A stretch of DNA of 64,000 nt from a bacterium. Its GTDB lineage: Bacteria; Calditrichota; Calditrichia; RBG-13-44-9; J042. The stretch is from positions 1,088-65,087 of the forward strand of contig WFTQ01000109.1 in the NCBI GenBank assembly GCA_015485355.1, given 5' to 3'. This document shows, piece by piece, positions 5,432 through 12,706 of the stretch; positions within the stretch are counted from its first letter, which is position 1, and the number at the start of each line of letters is the position of its first letter. A program made the translations under genes and the position numbers. The notes beneath the pieces were generated by a model. That model was not told the origin of the DNA. It searched no databases and saw nothing but the letters and a program-made list of their open reading frames with translations.

Positions 5432-6133
5432 ATGGGTTCTCATAAGCAGTTATATGTTGTGGTTATCGGGGATATTCAGGGTTCCAAACGGTTAACGGGC
5501 AATCATCGGTATCAAACGCAGTTGTTTATTAAATCCTCTATCATTCAGGTGAACGAGGAATACCATTCGCTGATCGAGGCGCCCTTTACCATCACCAAAG
5601 GGGACGAGTTTCAGGGATTATTGCCCAATCTGGAGGTGGCATTTCAGACCATTTTGGCACTGGAACGGATTACTTTTCCGGTTCACTTACGATTTGGCAT
5701 TGGAGTAGGGGAGGTGTTAAAAATGGGGGGGCGTTTACCGATTGAAATGGATGGACCGGCTTTTCATCGCGCCAACGAAGCCCTTCACATCGCCAAGCGA
5801 AAGCGAAACTGGATGTCTTTAAAGTCCCATGATCCTCAGATGGATTTATTGGTTAACACCATTTTCCATCTCATTCAAGCCATTCGTTCTAAATGGAACG
5901 ATCGTCACTATAATTTATACTGGAAATATAAGGATTTAGGCACTTATCGGGAGGTCGCCGCCGAGGAAAAAGTAACGCCGCAGGCCATTGGAGATATTCT
6001 GAAAAATTGCCGGGCGGTGGAAGTGAAACAGGCGGAGGAAAACCTGTTTCGGTACTTTCGCTGGCTGAATGGCCACATTTTCCCCTACAATGCTCAGCTG
6101 GTTGGAGACGAAGAAGAAGGCATTCCCCTATGA
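5432..6133 (+). CDS. SatD family protein
   Basis: Motifs VVIGDIQGSK, ITKGDEFQG, LRFGIGVG and DGPAFHRA, plus a C-terminal HTH-like segment. Confidence 0.8.
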   Translation: MGSHKQLYVVVIGDIQGSKRLTGNHRYQTQLFIKSSIIQVNEEYHSLIEAPFTITKGDEFQGLLPNLEVAFQTILALERITFPVHLRFGIGVGEVLKMGGRLPIEMDGPAFHRANEALHIAKRKRNWMSLKSHDPQMDLLVNTIFHLIQAIRSKWNDRHYNLYWKYKDLGTYREVAAEEKVTPQAIGDILKNCRAVEVKQAEENLFRYFRWLNGHIFPYNAQLVGDEEEGIPL

Positions 6134-6939
6134 TAGTATTGATCCAGGTACCGAATGCCCCAGAAGAGGATAAGAACAGCCGGGATTAATATGAGTGGCG
6201 ATACCTGCCCCTTCCATTCATATGCAGGGAAAGTTTCCGGTACATTCAGATTATAAAAGGTGAGCGCCAGGCTGTTGTTGATACCGTGACCGATAATGGA
6301 GGGGATAACACTGTTTGTCCGCCAGGCCAGATATCCTAAAATAATTCCGATTAAAAATATTTGAATGGCCCAATAAAGAATGCCGTGAATCAAGGCCCAG
6401 GCCAGGCTGGAATAGATAACGGCACGGGTGACAGGGATGTATTTTTCTAACGACAGTTGCAATAAACCCCGAAAGAGGGATTCTTCCACCAGGGCGGCCA
6501 ATACGACTGCTCCCAGGACCATGGTGAACAGTTCGAAATGACTCTGGTATTTAAAAAACTCCACCAACCTTTCCACCATGCCCGGCATCGGTAAAATCAA
6601 TTGAATTAAACGATCCAGCTGATCCCCCACAATGCTCAAAGCGAATCCGAGCGGAATGCTGACCAAAACGATAGGAAGCGGTACCTTGTGGAGGCGGAAC
6701 AGTTCTTTAATAAAGTAGCCCCGGAATTTGAGAAACAGGATAACGAACAACCAGAGCCCCAGCTCTCCAAAAACCAGAGACAGTTTGGAAATTAGGCCCG
6801 CCTGAAATCCGCTACCTTTTCCCGTCGAATTCATCAGGATGGCTCCTACCAGGCCCGTAACGGCGATGCTGAAGATAAATCCCAGAAAAATTAACAATCC
6901 GGAAAATAACGGCGTGGGTGTTTTCGTATCGTCGACCAT
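6094..6939 (-). CDS. CPBP (CAAX/Abi) family intramembrane glutamic endopeptidase
   Basis: Multi-TM protein with EESLFRG, WALIH and HGINN motifs. Confidence 0.87.
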   Translation of the reverse strand: MVDDTKTPTPLFSGLLIFLGFIFSIAVTGLVGAILMNSTGKGSGFQAGLISKLSLVFGELGLWLFVILFLKFRGYFIKELFRLHKVPLPIVLVSIPLGFALSIVGDQLDRLIQLILPMPGMVERLVEFFKYQSHFELFTMVLGAVVLAALVEESLFRGLLQLSLEKYIPVTRAVIYSSLAWALIHGILYWAIQIFLIGIILGYLAWRTNSVIPSIIGHGINNSLALTFYNLNVPETFPAYEWKGQVSPLILIPAVLILFWGIRYLDQYYHRGMPSSSSPTS

Positions 6940-6942
6940 GGG

Positions 6943-7734
6943 TTAATCCCTTTTTCGATTAAAAATTTGATTGGCAATGTGGTTCATGAATATCCCTCCC
7001 GCCACGGCGACGTTCAGGGATTCGGCCTGTCCAAACTTCCATATTCTTACCAACAAATCCAATTGCTTTTCAATTTCTATGGACAAGCCTTGGGCCTCTC
7101 CTCCCAGCACCAGGGCCACCGGCTTTTGCAATCGAATCTGGTTCAAAGTCTTGCGGGCGTGCAACGATGCTCCCAGGGTAAAGAAGCGATTCTTTTTTAA
7201 AATTTTCAGGCGTTCTTGCAGATGGTTAATTTCCAGAACCGGGAAGTGAAAAATGCTCCCCATGGTTGCGCGGATAACTTTGGGATTAAACGGTTCCACA
7301 CAATCGTCCGAGAGCAGGATCAAGTCGACGCCGAACCAATCCGCGGTGCGCACAAGGGTTCCCAGATTGCCGGGATCGCGAACACTCTGCAATACCAGAA
7401 TGAACTTTTTGTTGCCCAGATTCACCCGTTCCAGATCGGGATATTTTTCTTCCATAATGAGCAAAATGCCCTGCGGGGTGGTGGTATCGGCCAATTTCCG
7501 CAAATTTTGTTTCCCTATGGTTCGGTAAGATAGACCCCGTTGCCGAAAATATTCCTCAAATTCGTTCCAGTGATCTCCCCGTTGAAATTCTTCGGTCACG
7601 TAGGCGGCTTCGATCTTCCAGTCGGAGAGGAGGGCTTCGCGGCAAAGACGCAGCCCTTCCACAATAAATTTACGCGCCTCGCTGCGCCCTTTCTTTTTGG
7701 TCAGCGGTAGATATTTCCGCCAGCTTTCCGTCAT
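6943..7734 (-). CDS. TrmH/SpoU family RNA 2'-O-methyltransferase
   Basis: SPOUT motifs DPGNLGTLVRTA, LGGEAQGLS and ESLNVAVA. Confidence 0.93.
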   Translation of the reverse strand: MTESWRKYLPLTKKKGRSEARKFIVEGLRLCREALLSDWKIEAAYVTEEFQRGDHWNEFEEYFRQRGLSYRTIGKQNLRKLADTTTPQGILLIMEEKYPDLERVNLGNKKFILVLQSVRDPGNLGTLVRTADWFGVDLILLSDDCVEPFNPKVIRATMGSIFHFPVLEINHLQERLKILKKNRFFTLGASLHARKTLNQIRLQKPVALVLGGEAQGLSIEIEKQLDLLVRIWKFGQAESLNVAVAGGIFMNHIANQIFNRKRD

Positions 7735-9542
7735 TTGTAGCCCTTTCGTTTTTGAAGCAAAGGCGCCTTCCGGTACCAGCGCATCAGGTCGTCCCGGAAT
7801 ATCACCCCCAGCAATTTTCGGGGGTTGCGGCGGCTGGTCACCGGTAGCATCTCCGCATCGGTCAGATCGAACATCCGTAATACATCGGCCAACGATTGAT
7901 CGGGGGTAAGACTGAAATAGTCCTCCCGGGCAACGTCTTTGGCAATCAACAGGGGATAGAGGTGTTCATCAAACAGGTAGGGGCGGATATCCCGCAAGGA
8001 AATGATCCCCACCAGGAGATTCCTTGTATTGACAACCGGGAACGTCGAGCGGGTGCTGTTTTTCATTAGTTTTAAAATATCCTTAAACCTCATGTTTTCT
8101 GGAATGGTTTCGAATTCCCTTTGGATATGTTGGCGGATGGGAATGCTCTGTAACAGGGTTAAGTTTCGCCCTTTAAAAATATAGTCGCCGCTAAGAGAAA
8201 TGGCCTTGGTGTAAATATTTTCCTTCATCAGCAGGCGCGAGGTGATGGTGGCGACAATGGTTCCCAGCATGAGGGGCAGAATGATCTGATAATTGGAAGT
8301 GATTTCGAAGATGAGCAGCAGTGCAGAAAGGGTGGCATGGGTGGTTCCGGCGATAAGAATACCCATTCCCACCAGGGCGTAGGCCCCGGGGGGCGCCGTA
8401 ATGGTGGGGAAGAGGGTGTTGGCCACACTGCCGAAAAAGGCGCCGAAAGCGGCACCGATAAAGAGGGAGGGAGTGAACAAACCGCCTGTACCGCCCGAAC
8501 CCAGGGAAAAGGCGGTGGCCACAATTTTGACCACCATAAGAAGGAAAAGGGCCCCGATGCCGGTATGGGCCAGGAGGGCACGGTGGATGGCACCGTCATC
8601 GAACCCATAAATTTCTGGAAAATACAAGGCCAGCAACCCCACCAGCAATCCCCCCGTGGCCGGCTTGAGAAATTCCGGCAACCGGCGGACATGAGCGAAA
8701 AACTCTTCAACGGAATACAGGAAGTTGGTGAAAGATACCGACACCACAGCCCCTACAATGCCCATGAGAAAATAGATGGGATACTCATAGGCGCTTTCCA
8801 GATAATAAATGGGGATGTTTAGCACGGGTGAACTACCGATCAAATGATGGGATATGGTGGTGGAAATAACGGTAGCAAAAATAATGGGACTGAAAGCATT
8901 CAGGCTAAAGTCGGCCAGAATCACCTCCAGGGCAAACAAAACGCCGGTGACGGGTGCGTTGAAGACGGCCGCCAGTCCGGCGCCGGCACCGGTGGCCACC
9001 AAAACTTTCAGCCGTTCCGAAGACACACTGAAGAGCTGGCCGATAGTGGAACCGATGGCCGCACCAATTTGGACGATCGGCCCCTCTTTGCCTGCAGACC
9101 CACCGGAGCCGATGGTGGTTCCCGCCGTTATGGCGGTGATGATGCTTACCCGGGGGCGGATATAGCCCCCCCGATTGGCGACGGCTTCGATTACCGAAGG
9201 AACACCGTGCCCTTTGACCTCTCTGGCAAAATAGTAAATAACCAGACCGACCGCCAAGCCGCCCACAGCAGGAAACAACGCCCTGACCCAGGAGCCCAGG
9301 TCGGTACCGATCACCATTCCCTCGAATCGAACGAAAAGCAAATGGTGAACCAGGTTAACCAATAGGTGGAGCAGATAGGCCCCCAATCCCGCCAGTGTCC
9401 CGATAATGCCCGCCAGAAACAACATATAAAAATCTTCGGGTAAATTGATTTTCTGGATCAGCTTTAAAAGCAAGATGCGGTAATGGGCCGGATGGAAAAG
9501 GGGACTGCGCTTTCGGGTAATGAGTTTGCTGCTTTTGGTCAT
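7731..9542 (-). CDS. ClC family chloride channel/antiporter with two C-terminal CBS domains
   Basis: GHGVP (GSGIP-equivalent), GKEGP, GGLFTPSLFIG, ENIY, then a CBS pair. Start could extend to TTG at 9587. Confidence 0.93.
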   Translation of the reverse strand: MTKSSKLITRKRSPLFHPAHYRILLLKLIQKINLPEDFYMLFLAGIIGTLAGLGAYLLHLLVNLVHHLLFVRFEGMVIGTDLGSWVRALFPAVGGLAVGLVIYYFAREVKGHGVPSVIEAVANRGGYIRPRVSIITAITAGTTIGSGGSAGKEGPIVQIGAAIGSTIGQLFSVSSERLKVLVATGAGAGLAAVFNAPVTGVLFALEVILADFSLNAFSPIIFATVISTTISHHLIGSSPVLNIPIYYLESAYEYPIYFLMGIVGAVVSVSFTNFLYSVEEFFAHVRRLPEFLKPATGGLLVGLLALYFPEIYGFDDGAIHRALLAHTGIGALFLLMVVKIVATAFSLGSGGTGGLFTPSLFIGAAFGAFFGSVANTLFPTITAPPGAYALVGMGILIAGTTHATLSALLLIFEITSNYQIILPLMLGTIVATITSRLLMKENIYTKAISLSGDYIFKGRNLTLLQSIPIRQHIQREFETIPENMRFKDILKLMKNSTRSTFPVVNTRNLLVGIISLRDIRPYLFDEHLYPLLIAKDVAREDYFSLTPDQSLADVLRMFDLTDAEMLPVTSRRNPRKLLGVIFRDDLMRWYRKAPLLQKRKGYK

Positions 9543-9763
9543 GGTTTGTGCCTGAAATTCGCGATTGGTTTCATCACCACTGGTCAACGGTCATCGTTAC
9601 TCAACCACTAAATCGGTGCTCTGGTCGTATGCGAAAGGAAGCGGTGCACTTCCTTTGTTATGGCTTTATCATGGCCCGCGGCCGATGGAAAAGTTAATAT
9701 CAAATTCCATGAAAATAGAACTTCAATTCTTAAAATCTGTAATCTTGATAAATGAGGCAAGCT

Positions 9764-10003
9764 TTAAATGTGATCGATCATGGTTTCGATAATCCGGCGG
9801 GCTTGGGGGAAGTGAGTTTCGGGGACCAGGATGTAGATCATGTTCCCCGCCAGGGATTCGCCTGATATATTTAGGGCTGCGGTGATGCCGGCGTTTTTGA
9901 TCAAATGAGGAATGCCCTCTTTCTTCAGAACTTCGGAAATCATTTCGGCGTAATTGATTCCCGGCAAAGGACCGATTTTCTTTAAAGCCATGTTCTCTGC
10001 CAT
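9764..10003 (-). CDS. DUF2007-like putative signal-transducing protein (PII-like fold)
   Basis: 79 aa with pattern AEMISEVLKKEGIP...ILVPETHFPQARRII. Confidence 0.7.
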   Translation of the reverse strand: MAENMALKKIGPLPGINYAEMISEVLKKEGIPHLIKNAGITAALNISGESLAGNMIYILVPETHFPQARRIIETMIDHI

Positions 10004-10016
10004 CGGGGTGGACCGT

Positions 10017-10364
10017 TCAATTTTCCGGTTGAAAGGGTTTTCGGAAACCGAATACTTTTTCGACGGGTATTACTACAAGAATACCATTGCCGGGTTCATT
10101 CAGAGAGCCTACAATGCGTTCGATCTCCCGCACCACTTTTTCCACCATATGGTCTTCGATCACCGTAATAATGGTTTTATTGGCGGGACGGCTGCCCTGC
10201 ATCAGGTTCTTGAATCCCGCAAAGATCGGGATATCGTGGGTGATGATGGCGCCCATGCCTATACTGTCCAGAATGGTTGCACCAGAAATATTTAATTCCA
10301 AAAATGCTTCCAGAAGCTCTTCCAGAAGCTCTTCCTTATTCAGCACAAAGAATAGTAGCTTCAT
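10017..10364 (-). CDS. Atypical PII-family signalling protein
   Basis: 115 aa. GATILDSIGMG and GNGILVVIPV correspond to the PII B-loop and C-terminal motifs. No GlnB T-loop Tyr motif. Overlaps the EIIA gene by 4 nt. Confidence 0.8.
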   Translation of the reverse strand: MKLLFFVLNKEELLEELLEAFLELNISGATILDSIGMGAIITHDIPIFAGFKNLMQGSRPANKTIITVIEDHMVEKVVREIERIVGSLNEPGNGILVVIPVEKVFGFRKPFQPEN

Positions 10365-10837
10365 GCATTAATCTCAAAAAATTTCGCTTCTTCTTCTTTA
10401 AAAAACCGGTATATGCTTTCCGGGTTGGTGAGTTGAAGGAGACGGTTGCGGGTTTCCTCCTTAGAGATGATGCGCGAAATACGGCTGAGTAGACGAATGT
10501 GCAGGCCGGGTTGATCTTCCGGTCCCACCAACAGGAAAATGATTTGTGCGGGCTGATTGTCGATCGATTGAAAGTCTACCCCTTCCGGGTGAATCCCCAG
10601 GGCAATGGCAAAGTCGGCGCAGTCGGGATGTTTGCAATGGGGTATGGCTACACCGTTGCCCACGCCGGTGGTCATAATCTTTTCCCGTTCGAGGACGGCA
10701 TCCAGGATCGCCTGCTTTTCGGGAATCACCCCCTGCCTACCCAATAGGTCGATCAGTTCCTGAATGACTTCGACTTTGGTCTGGTTTTCCAGTGGATATT
10801 TAATATATTCGGGTTTCAGAACGTCGATTAATTTCAT
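10361..10837 (-). CDS. PTS EIIA (fructose/Ntr-type) domain protein
   Basis: REKIMTTGVGNGVAIPHCK with the phosphorylatable His, plus IFLLVGP and HIRLLSRISR. Confidence 0.9.
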   Translation of the reverse strand: MKLIDVLKPEYIKYPLENQTKVEVIQELIDLLGRQGVIPEKQAILDAVLEREKIMTTGVGNGVAIPHCKHPDCADFAIALGIHPEGVDFQSIDNQPAQIIFLLVGPEDQPGLHIRLLSRISRIISKEETRNRLLQLTNPESIYRFFKEEEAKFFEINA

Positions 10838-10971: not shown

Positions 10972-11256
10972 TTAAGCCTGGGGTTCCGGTGCGTCCGCCT
11001 CGGGTACTAACTCCACCAGAGCCCGGCATCCGCAACGGCAGCGAAATTCGATCCGTTTAATTTCGCCGTCTTCCTCGGTGACCATAATTTCCGGAGAAGA
11101 TTCCCTGATTTCTCCGGGCACGTAAGCCGTGATTCTTTCCCGATGATTTTCCACAAATTCCCTTTTTAAAATGGGCGATTGGGTGCGATAGGGCTTTTTC
11201 AAGGCGCCTACCAGCGTGTGGGGATTCTCCAGGAAGGAGATAAAATCCTTTTTCAT
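10972..11256 (-). CDS. Small hypothetical protein with IEFRCRCGC motif
   Basis: ORF fills an otherwise empty region and has a purine-rich RBS. Alternative start at 11280. Confidence 0.6.
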   Translation of the reverse strand: MKKDFISFLENPHTLVGALKKPYRTQSPILKREFVENHRERITAYVPGEIRESSPEIMVTEEDGEIKRIEFRCRCGCRALVELVPEADAPEPQA

Positions 11257-11416
11257 TCTCCAACTTCCTTGTTTGTCCATTCAATATTATCGGCCCCGGT
11301 AAAATTGGGTTAAAGGTAAAAAAATAATCCACATTGGGGGAAAAATTATTATATTCTTTTGGATGCAAGGCCGTGTTTTCTGGGTTCTGTGAAATCAAAC
11401 AAGAAGGAGATTTCCC

Positions 11417-12706
11417 ATGAGAAAGGTGGTTGGTGTTGCTTTGTTGACGGTTTTGGTTTCCTTTTCGTCGGGTTTTTCCCAGGCATTCCCGGATCCTTTT
11501 CGGGAACCGGAACAGAGTACCCTGGCCGGAGGATTGGGAATGACCTGGATTGATGGAAGACCTTACACGACATTTACTATCGCGCCGGACATCTCCTTGG
11601 GGAAATTTGGGATTGGTATCTATCTCCAATTGTTATTAGACAATCAGAATCAATTTACGTTGCGAAAAGATGAGTATCAGGGTGGAGCGGGAATTTTACG
11701 GGCCATCCGCTATATTCGCTACGGCAGGAAATACGATCCCTTTTATGTGCGCGTGGGTATGCTGGAAATGGCCTCCCTTGGAAATGGATTCTTGATGTGG
11801 AATTATAATAACGGGTCCAATTATGATAAGCGGAAAATCGGTTTGGCTCTGGATGCTGATTTGGGAACCTTCGGATTTGAGACCGTAGCCAGCAACTTGA
11901 ATACTCTGGAGCTGGTGGGAGCCAACGTGTTCGTCCGTCCGTTTCGCTTTTTTATGCCCGAGGCTTTGTTATTAAAGGATATTCGAGTCTATAGCACCTT
12001 TGTCATGGATCGGGGGGTTCCGACTCTTCAGGGTTCTACCCGAAATATCCAGGCTTTCGGGTTTGGAGCGGACCTGCACTGGCTGGATTACCCCTTTATC
12101 AAAAGCTTTATTTACGCGGACTTCGGCAAGTTTAAGGATTATGGTTCCGGACAGGCCGTGGGAATCACCGGCATTGTCCCGGATCTGGGGGGAATTTTAG
12201 GGGTCGCCGCCAAGTTCGAAAAGCGCTTCCTCGATGAACAATTTATCCCCAATTTTTTTGGCCCCATGTATGACCTGAGTCGCACCCCGGTACCGACGGT
12301 CAATGCCTTCGAGCTTCTGGAAAATGCCCCGAAATCAGAGGGCTACTTTGGACAGTTAACCGGCCATATTGCACAAAAAATTCGATTGATTGGAAACTAC
12401 CAGCGGCTGAATGGGAAAAAATACAGTGGGATTTTGCATCTCGAAGCCTCGGCGCCGGACTTGATCCCTCAGATCGAATTGCGAGCCTATTATGATAAGA
12501 GTAACATCGAAAGTTTTCGGGACGCTCGAACCCTGGATATTAATTCCATTGCCACTGTGGAAGTGTCCTACCGGCTCAATCGCTTCATGTTGCTCACCAC
12601 CATTTACCGATGGTACTGGGTGGAAGTTGTTGATGAGTTTGGGGTAAAACAGTATAAACCCATTGAGCGCATTGAGCCGCGGATTACGTTTAGCTATTCG
12701 TTTTAA
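11417..12706 (+). CDS. Putative outer-membrane beta-barrel protein of unknown function
   Basis: Signal peptide followed by Gln, many amphipathic beta-strands, C-terminal beta-signal ITFSYSF. Confidence 0.8.
   Translation: MRKVVGVALLTVLVSFSSGFSQAFPDPFREPEQSTLAGGLGMTWIDGRPYTTFTIAPDISLGKFGIGIYLQLLLDNQNQFTLRKDEYQGGAGILRAIRYIRYGRKYDPFYVRVGMLEMASLGNGFLMWNYNNGSNYDKRKIGLALDADLGTFGFETVASNLNTLELVGANVFVRPFRFFMPEALLLKDIRVYSTFVMDRGVPTLQGSTRNIQAFGFGADLHWLDYPFIKSFIYADFGKFKDYGSGQAVGITGIVPDLGGILGVAAKFEKRFLDEQFIPNFFGPMYDLSRTPVPTVNAFELLENAPKSEGYFGQLTGHIAQKIRLIGNYQRLNGKKYSGILHLEASAPDLIPQIELRAYYDKSNIESFRDARTLDINSIATVEVSYRLNRFMLLTTIYRWYWVEVVDEFGVKQYKPIERIEPRITFSYSF

Follow-up and report, generated by a model that had tools for sequence, protein, structure and literature searches.

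An EIIA/PII-like gene pair of Calditrichota and its association with unlinked CPA-type cation/proton antiporter genes

Among the small proteins that regulate bacterial transporters post-translationally, the two best-known kinds are EIIA proteins of the PtsN type and proteins of the PII fold, which have so far been considered separately. PtsN is known to control TrkA and KdpD, while canonical PII proteins undergo modification of their T-loop and act on many soluble targets. In E. coli, the CPA1 K+/H+ antiporter YcgO/CvrA is a target of PtsN, which binds and inhibits it when unphosphorylated (PMC11808508). The set of transporter-bound PII and PII-like proteins includes GlnK-AmtB, SbtB-SbtA, PotN-PotABCD (PDB 7o4x) and the PII-NrtCD pairing (PMC10945777). 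The text of a 2026 review of the PTS-Ntr (PMC13104625) mentions none of PII, GlnB, chloride and ClC, and we found no description of an EIIA/PII-like pairing, or of an EIIA/PII-like/CPA module, in the searchable literature.

The locus described here lies in a 64,000-nt stretch of a Calditrichota genome (contig WFTQ01000109.1), referred to below as the window. A sequence-only reading had recognized genes for an EIIA, an atypical PII protein, a DUF2007 protein and a ClC with CBS domains, and had proposed that they form a signal-regulated anion transport module. All four open reading frames are present on the minus strand at the positions it gave, and its assignment of the small proteins to signalling families holds (Table 1). 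As for the proposed module, a tie of the EIIA/PII-like pair to ion transporters was borne out, but the choice of ClC as the target was not. The genes that follow ClC, trmH and a CPBP protease gene, had been omitted from that reading.

Table 1. Features of the EIIA/PII-like locus, with positions in the window
Feature	Position	Strand	Basis
EIIA, PtsN-like, stand-alone, 158 aa	10361-10837	-	Pfam PTS_EIIA_2, 132 bits
PII-like protein, divergent, 115 aa	10017-10364	-	Pfam P-II, 30.2 bits (cut-off 25)
DUF2007 protein, 79 aa	9764-10003	-	Pfam DUF2007 (PF09413), 34.7 bits (cut-off 25.7)
Spacer DUF2007-ClC, 221 nt, possible internal promoter	9543-9763	-	Genus alignment
ClC with two C-terminal CBS domains	7731-9542 (ATG start) or 7731-9587 (TTG start)	-	Voltage_CLC, 326 bits
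SpoU/TrmH-family RNA 2'-O-methyltransferase	6943-7734	-	Pfam and NCBIfam
CPBP (Rce1-like) intramembrane protease, final gene of the co-directional array	6094-6939	-	Pfam Rce1-like, synteny
Small Cys-rich hypothetical protein, 102 aa	10972-11280	-	Context only; without Pfam or NCBIfam family

The stop codon of EIIA and the start codon of the PII-like gene share 4 nt (ATGA), and 13 nt separate the PII-like gene from DUF2007. The distance from DUF2007 to ClC is 176 nt or 221 nt, depending on whether the TTG or the ATG start is used, and apart from this spacer the array has no sizeable gap. The 221-nt spacer holds an AT-rich block of about 90 nt that is conserved within the genus (alignment of G000, G001 and G003). 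The spacer gave no Rfam match (fold z-score -1.08), and no consensus promoter or terminator was called on its minus strand; it is a possible internal promoter. Further downstream, the ClC stop codon overlaps trmH by 4 nt and trmH is followed after 3 nt by the CPBP protease gene, so that in this genome the closest packing of ClC is with two genes of housekeeping type, and the genes for the three small proteins lie farther off.

Like PtsN in the PtsN-YcgO system, the EIIA encoded here is a stand-alone EIIA_2-type protein that carries a phospho-acceptor histidine and lacks a sugar permease of its own class. The Pfam match spans residues 6-148, as a stand-alone EIIA fold, and across 66 EIIA orthologues the phospho-acceptor motif AIPH (GVAIPH, His68) shows conservation of at least 95%. 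Glc/Fru/Mtl-type EIIC (PF02378) was absent from the genomes of 21/21 relatives, with positive controls detected, and these EIIA_2-type proteins are therefore left without a sugar permease to serve. The lack of a cognate Fru/Mtl-type EIIBC implies that the role of EIIA is regulatory. One HPr and one EI (593 aa) are encoded in the genome, and PTS input to EIIA through this single EI and single HPr is possible. The EI begins directly with PEP-utilisers_N, and the genes for EI and HPr both adjoin Man-family EIIC/EIID. The arrangement differs from the PTS-Ntr: neither a dedicated relay (PtsP with a GAF domain, NPr) nor an rpoN-operon context was found in this genome, where the only EI is GAF-less, and EIIA falls below the NCBIfam cut-offs for a PtsN equivalog (TIGR01419, 90.3 bits against 138.7; NF008145, 79.2 against 221). 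EIIA is flanked by the PII-like gene and by the Cys-rich hypothetical gene, which sits 134 nt upstream and is conserved there in families f1 and f2. In two genomes (G041 and G066) EIIA is kept without the PII-like gene, and EIIA must thus have further roles.

The PII-like protein belongs to a family of 546 representatives (E<=1e-10) and presumably forms a trimer. Besides its Pfam P-II (PF00543) match, an AF2 model (pLDDT 85.7) shows the beta-alpha-beta / loop / beta-alpha-beta layout of a PII domain, a ferredoxin-like fold with a T-loop. Foldseek matched this model with probability 1.0 to many PII structures, with PotN (7o4x) as the top PDB hit followed by GlnK and GlnB. Canonical PII proteins bind their ligands and are modified through Arg38, Gln39, Tyr51, Lys90 of GDGKIF, and Arg101/Arg103. 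In an alignment to 2eg1, Arg38, Gln39, Tyr51, Lys90 and Arg101 are not kept: GFGQQKGH is replaced by GMGAIITH, GDGKIF by GNGILV and IRIR by FGFR, with only the two B-loop glycines retained. PotN, the best fold match, shares 27% identity with the PII-like protein, which represents a different subfamily in which the nucleotide/2-OG residues are largely lost. Its best-conserved segment is the T-loop region, GMGxIxxxDIPIFAGF...RPxNKT. With GlnK-AmtB, SbtB-SbtA, PII-NrtCD and PotN it has in common its small size, the PII fold, a genetic tie to a membrane transporter and a T-loop that is the conserved functional element. The near-invariance of this loop across gene contexts could reflect binding of EIIA or of a ligand, rather than docking on a transporter. 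A second PII homologue (31% identity) is encoded on contig C73. The DUF2007 protein scores over its Pfam gathering cut-off. The sequence-only reading had called it PII-like; comparison of its alignment with that of the PII-like protein showed no similarity at the profile level (hhalign probability 4.8%). In relatives, DUF2007 comes after the PII-like gene whether ClC is present or not; it is a lineage-specific third gene added to the EIIA/PII-like unit.

In contrast to PtsN-YcgO, EIIA is here paired, overlapping or fused with a PII-like protein. At the core of the locus is a translationally coupled two-gene regulatory unit that encodes the divergent PII-like protein together with its PtsN-like EIIA. 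EIIA lies immediately upstream of the PII-like gene in 144/155 related loci, drawn from Calditrichota, KSB1, Eisenbacteria, Delongbacteria, Balneolales, Aminicenantes and others, and the EIIA stop overlaps the PII-like start in 96/148 loci. In G002, a member of the window's own family, the operon stops after the PII-like gene. Single-protein EIIA-PII-like fusions have arisen in at least three lineages and fall into three unrelated sequence clusters (P0179; P0223; P0235 with P0271-P0273); a single-chain AF2 model of a natural fusion reached a pTM of 0.65. Every such fusion adjoins Na_H_Exchanger genes, and a PII-like-PilZ fusion was also found upstream of a CPAa/CPAb pair. The usual neighbours of the pair are in fact genes for CPA-type cation/proton antiporters, CPAa and CPAb, and not ClC. 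In about 72 of 80 metagenome loci the genes run EIIA, PII-like, CPAa, CPAb, spaced about 8-12 nt apart, and this order persists down to identities of about 31% for EIIA and about 28% for CPAa. Taken together, the retained adjacency, the coupled translation, the natural fusions and the transporter genes alongside support the view that EIIA and its PII-like partner constitute a genuine functional pair with a tie to ion transporters of the membrane.

In the window, CPAa and CPAb do not adjoin the pair; DUF2007, ClC, trmH and CPBP lie downstream instead. The genome does encode both antiporter orthologues, CPAa on contig C95 and CPAb on contig C63, unlinked to the window (identified as reciprocal best hits, with gene order in agreement in 54/55 loci). 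Among 86 Calditrichota genomes, 48 carry both the PII-like gene and the CPAa/CPAb orthologues, 3 the PII-like gene only, 0 the CPA genes only and 35 neither (Fisher p = 5.6e-21, uncorrected, in a test that ignores phylogeny). The three genomes with only the PII-like gene are all incomplete (62-87% complete), and the joint absences are spread over at least 8 family or genus lineages. In G041 and G066, the PII-like gene has been lost from an otherwise intact locus, and CPAa and CPAb are missing too.

On balance, we consider it likely that CPAa and CPAb are controlled in trans by an EIIA/PII-like switch that senses the state of the PTS, and that the adjacency of ClC is inherited gene order. The sequences directly show which genes are present, EI and HPr included, how often they adjoin or are fused, and in which genomes they occur together; phosphotransfer to His68, the binding of EIIA to the PII-like protein, contact with CPAa/CPAb and the direction of control are what we infer. 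Phosphorylation of His68 on EIIA by the single EI and HPr would reflect carbon and energy status, as set by PEP/pyruvate. EIIA would bind the PII-like protein, which would be the transporter-facing element, and the two might then switch a two-subunit CPAa/CPAb cation/proton antiporter on or off post-translationally. The four genes make up one operon in most phyla, and in Calditrichota this operon is split; with CPAa on C95 and CPAb on C63, control would have to act in trans. As in PtsN-YcgO, the phosphorylation state of EIIA is here proposed to be read by a cation/proton antiporter or by ion homeostasis, but the antiporters are RCK-less CPAa/CPAb pairs whereas YcgO has a CorC/RCK tail. Relative to GlnK-AmtB, SbtB and PotN, the transporter class is CPA, EIIA (occasionally PilZ) is an obligatory input partner, and the regulator and transporter genes are unlinked in Calditrichota.

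In the model drawn from the sequence-only reading, EIIA, the PII-like protein and DUF2007 would act together on the CBS domains of the neighbouring ClC to gate it, with anion flux set by carbon, energy or nucleotide status. We regard this as unlikely. The genes do share a strand, and in 13 of the 51 Calditrichota genomes that carry the PII-like gene, DUF2007 is immediately followed by the ClC orthologue. Pairs of CBS domains are known to serve in docking and nucleotide binding. PtsN docks on a cytoplasmic regulatory domain of YcgO (PMC11808508). In sister family f3, moreover, DUF2007 and ClC are separated by -4 to 21 nt, an operon-like gap; co-transcription is likely there, and the unit may in addition act on ClC. 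However, ClC fails to track the PII-like gene: 35 of the 86 genomes have both, 16 the PII-like gene only, 11 the ClC orthologue only and 24 neither, and the two genes have been gained or lost largely independently across the phylum. The class-wide order is EIIA, PII-like, (Ser/Thr kinase), (hisS), ClC, trmH, CPBP, and trmH comes after ClC, or after DUF2007/hisS where ClC is missing. The deeper families f4, f5, f6 and f8 have the kinase and hisS between the PII-like gene and ClC. G041 and G066 retain EIIA, kinase, hisS, ClC and trmH in place despite deletion of the PII-like gene, with ClC still between hisS and trmH, and the PII-like gene conversely persists in genomes where ClC is lost. Where the array is broken (G059, G061, G053, G043), ClC moves with hisS/trmH and not with EIIA and the PII-like gene. 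The window itself has its only large gap between DUF2007 and ClC, while ClC overlaps trmH. Outside Calditrichota, a ClC was found within 7 kb of the pair in one lineage only (L096, L187), on the opposite strand and not adjacent. ClC appears to adjoin the EIIA/PII-like unit because of inherited co-directional gene order, and this adjacency does not mark it as the regulated transporter.

The ClC protein resembles known CLCs (the membrane domain of ClC-ec1 and StClC; the CBS pairs of CmCLC and eukaryotic CLCs) in its Voltage_CLC domain, the gating Glu in GKEGP, the Tyr-cen and two C-terminal CBS domains. Unlike ClC-ec1, it has His at the Ser-cen position (GHGVP) and, in alignment to ClC-ec1 and StClC, Val at the position of the internal proton Glu, and so lacks the ClC-ec1-type exchanger residue set. 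The same motifs recur unchanged in 13 orthologues and in the paralogue on C77. We considered a ClC-F identity and rejected it, given a weak match to ClC-F structures and the absence of a fluoride riboswitch. A broader scheme would make EIIA, the PII-like protein and DUF2007 a hub through which the phosphorylation state of the PTS governs monovalent ion balance in both its arms: CPAa/CPAb would be controlled in trans and, in f1 and f3, DUF2007 would act on the CBS domains of a co-transcribed ClC of the GHGVP type, with cation/H+ and Cl- fluxes shifting together. We hold this to be quite unlikely.

Less likely again is that the pair signals to a non-transporter, such as the PEGA-domain Ser/Thr kinase or carbon/nitrogen metabolism, and that its co-occurrence with CPAa/CPAb is indirect and due to a shared niche. 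A Hanks-type kinase does directly follow the PII-like gene in about 20 Calditrichia loci, the T-loop-modified canonical PII proteins have their many soluble targets, and EIIA is kept without the PII-like gene in two genomes. But the kinase is missing from the locus in f1 and f3, with no close orthologue in the genome (best hits 34-38% identity), and outside Calditrichota it is not a neighbour of the pair, whereas CPA genes are. All fusions adjoin CPA genes, and among the 86 genomes CPAa/b do not occur where the PII-like gene is missing. That the array is conserved order only, with no functional link among its genes and an ordinary nitrogen PII, would fit the label 'P-II family nitrogen regulator' in some database entries and the presence of trmH, CPBP and hisS without an evident signalling link, but is made very improbable by the lost canonical residues, the translational coupling and repeated fusion with EIIA, the absence of CPAa/b from the genomes that lack the PII-like gene, and the separate PII homologue on C73.

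Our analysis of the window carries a caution, since close same-strand packing with a transporter, here ClC, can mean inherited order and not a functional module. It also adds evidence beyond gene-neighbourhood surveys, namely that the genes for regulator and antiporter, although unlinked in Calditrichota, are retained or lost together. If the proposed switch is correct, the EIIA/PII-like pair would explain how bare, RCK-less antiporters are controlled. As a dedicated, often fused pair that accompanies such CPA antiporters across many uncultivated phyla, it would also connect the PTS with the PII superfamily.

The array in the window comprises seven co-directional minus-strand ORFs, identified from the ORF listing and assigned to families by Pfam and NCBIfam. 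The sequence-only reading had described four of these genes, from EIIA to the ClC, and what it observed is correct. From EIIA to the CPBP protease the inter-gene gaps are -4, 13, 221 (or 176), -4 and 3 nt, and the sole real gap of the array thus separates the small proteins from the chloride-channel-family gene (ClC), which itself overlaps trmH. The host genome is that of a metagenome-assembled, hydrothermal-vent Calditrichia, and the sequencing runs that contain the window stretch are five DNA metagenome runs, with no RNA run among them. Both the Cys-rich protein and a 429-aa protein encoded divergently to the array stay upstream of EIIA in the window's own family (f1) and in family f2. The 429-aa protein, for which no family assignment was found, shows a weak ImpL63-like match and is possibly located in the outer membrane.

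Features of the array and of further loci discussed in the text (array ORF starts are those of the longest ORFs; positions without a prefix are in the window, C marks contigs of the same genome and L marks loci)
Feature	Position	Strand	Description
429-aa protein	11417-12706	+	
Cys-rich protein (CRCGCR motif)	10972-11280	-	102 aa; no Pfam/NCBIfam family
EIIA	10361-10837	-	158 aa; PTS_EIIA_2, 132 bits
PII-like protein	10017-10364	-	115 aa; P-II 30.2 bits, cut-off 25
DUF2007	9764-10003	-	79 aa; 34.7 bits
AT-rich block	9675-9763	-	~90 nt
ClC	7731-9542 (ATG) or 7731-9587 (TTG)	-	~603-618 aa; Voltage_CLC and two CBS domains
SpoU/TrmH-family methyltransferase (trmH)	6943-7734	-	263 aa; Pfam, NCBIfam
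CPBP protease	6094-6939	-	281 aa; Rce1-like
EIIC (EII-Sor) and EIID (EIID-AGA) genes	C20:13264-16789 (L190)		directly upstream of ptsH-ptsI
Glycosyltransferase-EIIA fusion	C35:72481-74004 (L191:82-1602)		507 aa; family-2 glycosyltransferase, C-terminal PTS_EIIA_2
ClC paralogue	C77:27627-29801		extra TrkA_C domain
PII-like-PilZ fusion (P0266)	L219:4610-5827		

EIIA and the PII-like protein are a real unit, and their usual partner is a pair of CPA-type cation/proton antiporter genes, CPAa and CPAb. An exhaustive HMM search recovered 546 cluster representatives of the PII-like family at E<=1e-10. Of 155 loci taken from genomes of species and from metagenomes, 144 have EIIA immediately before the PII-like gene, and the EIIA stop overlaps the PII-like start in 96/148. 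The order EIIA, PII-like, CPAa, CPAb is found in ~72 of 80 loci, a sample centred on an Aminicenantes-type member, with gaps of ~8-12 nt, and is kept down to an EIIA identity of ~31% and a CPAa identity of ~28%. Natural EIIA-PII-like fusions occur in three unrelated sequence clusters; every fusion adjoins Na_H_Exchanger genes, all retain the His, and a natural fusion folds well as a single chain (pLDDT 87, pTM 0.65). Elsewhere, a fusion of the PII-like domain to PilZ, a type of c-di-GMP receptor, stands directly upstream of a CPAa/CPAb pair. This arrangement suggests that the PII-like part faces the transporter, with EIIA or PilZ as exchangeable input. Full-text literature searches found no paper pairing a PII-like protein with EIIA, and a review of PTS-Ntr from 2026 (PMC13104625) nowhere uses the words PII, GlnB, chloride or ClC; the pair therefore appears to be undescribed in the searchable literature.

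The PII-like protein aligns end to end with GlnB/GlnK and has lost most of the canonical ligand and modification residues. Its AF2 model has a PII fold (pLDDT 85.7); PotN (7o4x), which is associated with a transporter, is its top PDB fold match, and GlnK and GlnB structures rank next. Within the family, conservation is highest in the T-loop region, GMGxI..DIPIFAGF..RPxNKT. A kinship of DUF2007 with PII could not be shown by sequence: hhalign detected no significant profile similarity to the PII-like family; a PDB search for sequence relatives of DUF2007 found none. Another PII-like domain is fused to a PrmC-type methyltransferase (P0148). Rarer neighbors of the PII-like gene include V-type ATPase subunits, F-type ATPase atpI/atpB and an SSF symporter. 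In a few lineages it precedes rotary ATPase membrane-subunit genes with no adjacent EIIA (V-type in L055, L060 and L065; F-type atpI/atpB in L071 and L091), another ion-translocating context.

The window genome keeps orthologues of both antiporter genes, unlinked, with CPAa on contig C95 and CPAb on C63; reciprocal best hits support these assignments, and in 54 of 55 operons the gene order agrees with them. In most Calditrichota, CPAa and CPAb form a two-gene operon of their own with no regulator nearby. Among 86 Calditrichota genomes, many of the compared assemblies being incomplete metagenome assemblies, 48 have both the PII-like gene and CPAa/CPAb, 35 have neither, three have the PII-like gene only and none has CPAa/CPAb only (Fisher p = 5.6e-21, uncorrected for phylogeny). 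The three exceptions are incomplete genomes (62%, 67% and 87% complete), and the joint absences involve eight or more lineages of family or genus rank. In genomes G041 and G066 the locus is intact except for a deletion of the PII-like gene, and CPAa and CPAb are missing too. This co-occurrence is the strongest evidence obtained, and it favors the CPAa/CPAb antiporter over the ClC as functional partner in Calditrichota.

The adjacent ClC had been proposed as the target of the small proteins; the adjacency itself is real and, in the sister family f3, tight: the gaps there are -4 to 21 nt from DUF2007 to ClC and -4 to 6 nt from ClC to trmH. However, gene order across the phylum, the subject of the synteny survey suggested with that proposal, speaks against the ClC being tied specifically to the pair. 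In families f4, f5, f6 and f8 the order is polyprenyl synthase, an EIIA paralogue on the opposite strand, then EIIA, PII-like, a PEGA-domain Ser/Thr kinase immediately downstream, hisS, ClC, trmH and CPBP, followed by SatD. In f1 and f3, DUF2007 is present and the kinase and hisS are missing from the locus; the ClC therefore comes to lie next to the small proteins. A ClC orthologue (at least 51% identity) accompanies the PII-like gene in 35 of the 86 genomes, while 16 have the PII-like gene only, 11 the ClC only and 24 neither. The ClC stays where the PII-like gene was lost (G041 and G066 keep EIIA, kinase, hisS, ClC and trmH), and it has moved or separated with hisS (and trmH) away from EIIA/PII-like in G059, G061, G053 and G043. 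EIIA, PII-like, DUF2007 and trmH persist without it in G011, G027 and G029, and in G002, of the window's own family, the operon stops at the PII-like gene. In the PII-like protein tree all Calditrichota form one clade, with ClC presence toggling among the members of its DUF2007 subclade; clades linked to CPA genes, the deepest branches among them, are found outside. Recurrence of a ClC beside the pair in other phyla was seen only in one Eisenbacteria-like lineage (L096, L187), where the ClC is encoded on the other strand at a distance of 1.4-3.6 kb, which is compatible with chance. That the small proteins also act on the ClC in f1 and f3 has a low probability. The divergent second EIIA immediately upstream of the pair in f4, f5, f6 and f8 (e.g. 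L035, L041, L051, L207) is the orthologue of a copy on contig C69 of the window genome.

The 221-nt spacer before the ClC gave zero Rfam matches at E<=1, riboswitches including the fluoride type having been looked for, and its fold is ordinary (z = -1.08). A consensus-based promoter and terminator scan, which may not suit the host phylum, called nothing on the minus strand. The AT-rich block right after the DUF2007 stop is conserved in both species that represent the genus and to some extent in G003; it could serve ClC-trmH-CPBP as an internal promoter. The ClC is of the CBS type, with the gating Glu and Tyr-cen present, His in place of Ser-cen (GHGVP) and Val in place of the internal proton Glu. 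GHG[VI]P and Val also occur in the C77 paralogue and in all 13 orthologues checked; judged by these residues, such proteins are a ClC subclass. The GHGVP motif is not mentioned in a plant CLC paper (PMC8839641). A ClC-F identity was ruled out by weak matches to ClC-F structures, the CBS domains and the lack of a preceding riboswitch.

The phospho-acceptor motif of EIIA, AIPH (His68), is at least 95% conserved among 66 orthologues, and the window protein scores below the NCBIfam PtsN equivalog cut-offs. A single HPr and a single EI, the latter of 593 aa and lacking a GAF domain, are encoded on contig C20. Glc/Fru/Mtl-type EIIC was absent from 21 of 21 related genomes searched. The idea that the PTS is purely regulatory here was rejected in that form, as a Man-family EIIC/EIID pair adjoins ptsH-ptsI and only the Fru/Mtl/Glc-type EIIC is missing. 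Three EIIA_2-type domains are present, in the window, on C69 beside a polyprenyl synthase and on C35 fused to a glycosyltransferase, and presumably all are regulatory, since none has a cognate sugar permease. By eye, the C35 glycosyltransferase part resembles glucosyl-3-phosphoglycerate-synthase-type enzymes, and the fusion could place compatible-solute synthesis under control of the PTS state.

We propose that EI and HPr would set the phosphorylation of EIIA His68, and that EIIA would bind the PII-like protein, as their coupling and fusion suggest. The PII-like protein would in turn engage CPAa/CPAb, in keeping with operons, fusion contexts and co-occurrence, and cation/proton exchange would thereby be controlled. 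The closest precedent is YcgO, which is bound and inhibited by unphosphorylated PtsN (PMC11808508), and PII-fold proteins act with transporters in GlnK-AmtB, SbtB-SbtA, PII-NrtCD (PMC10945777) and PotN. What the window adds is a split arrangement with co-occurrence in trans, the addition of DUF2007, and a clear case in which adjacency to a transporter is misleading.
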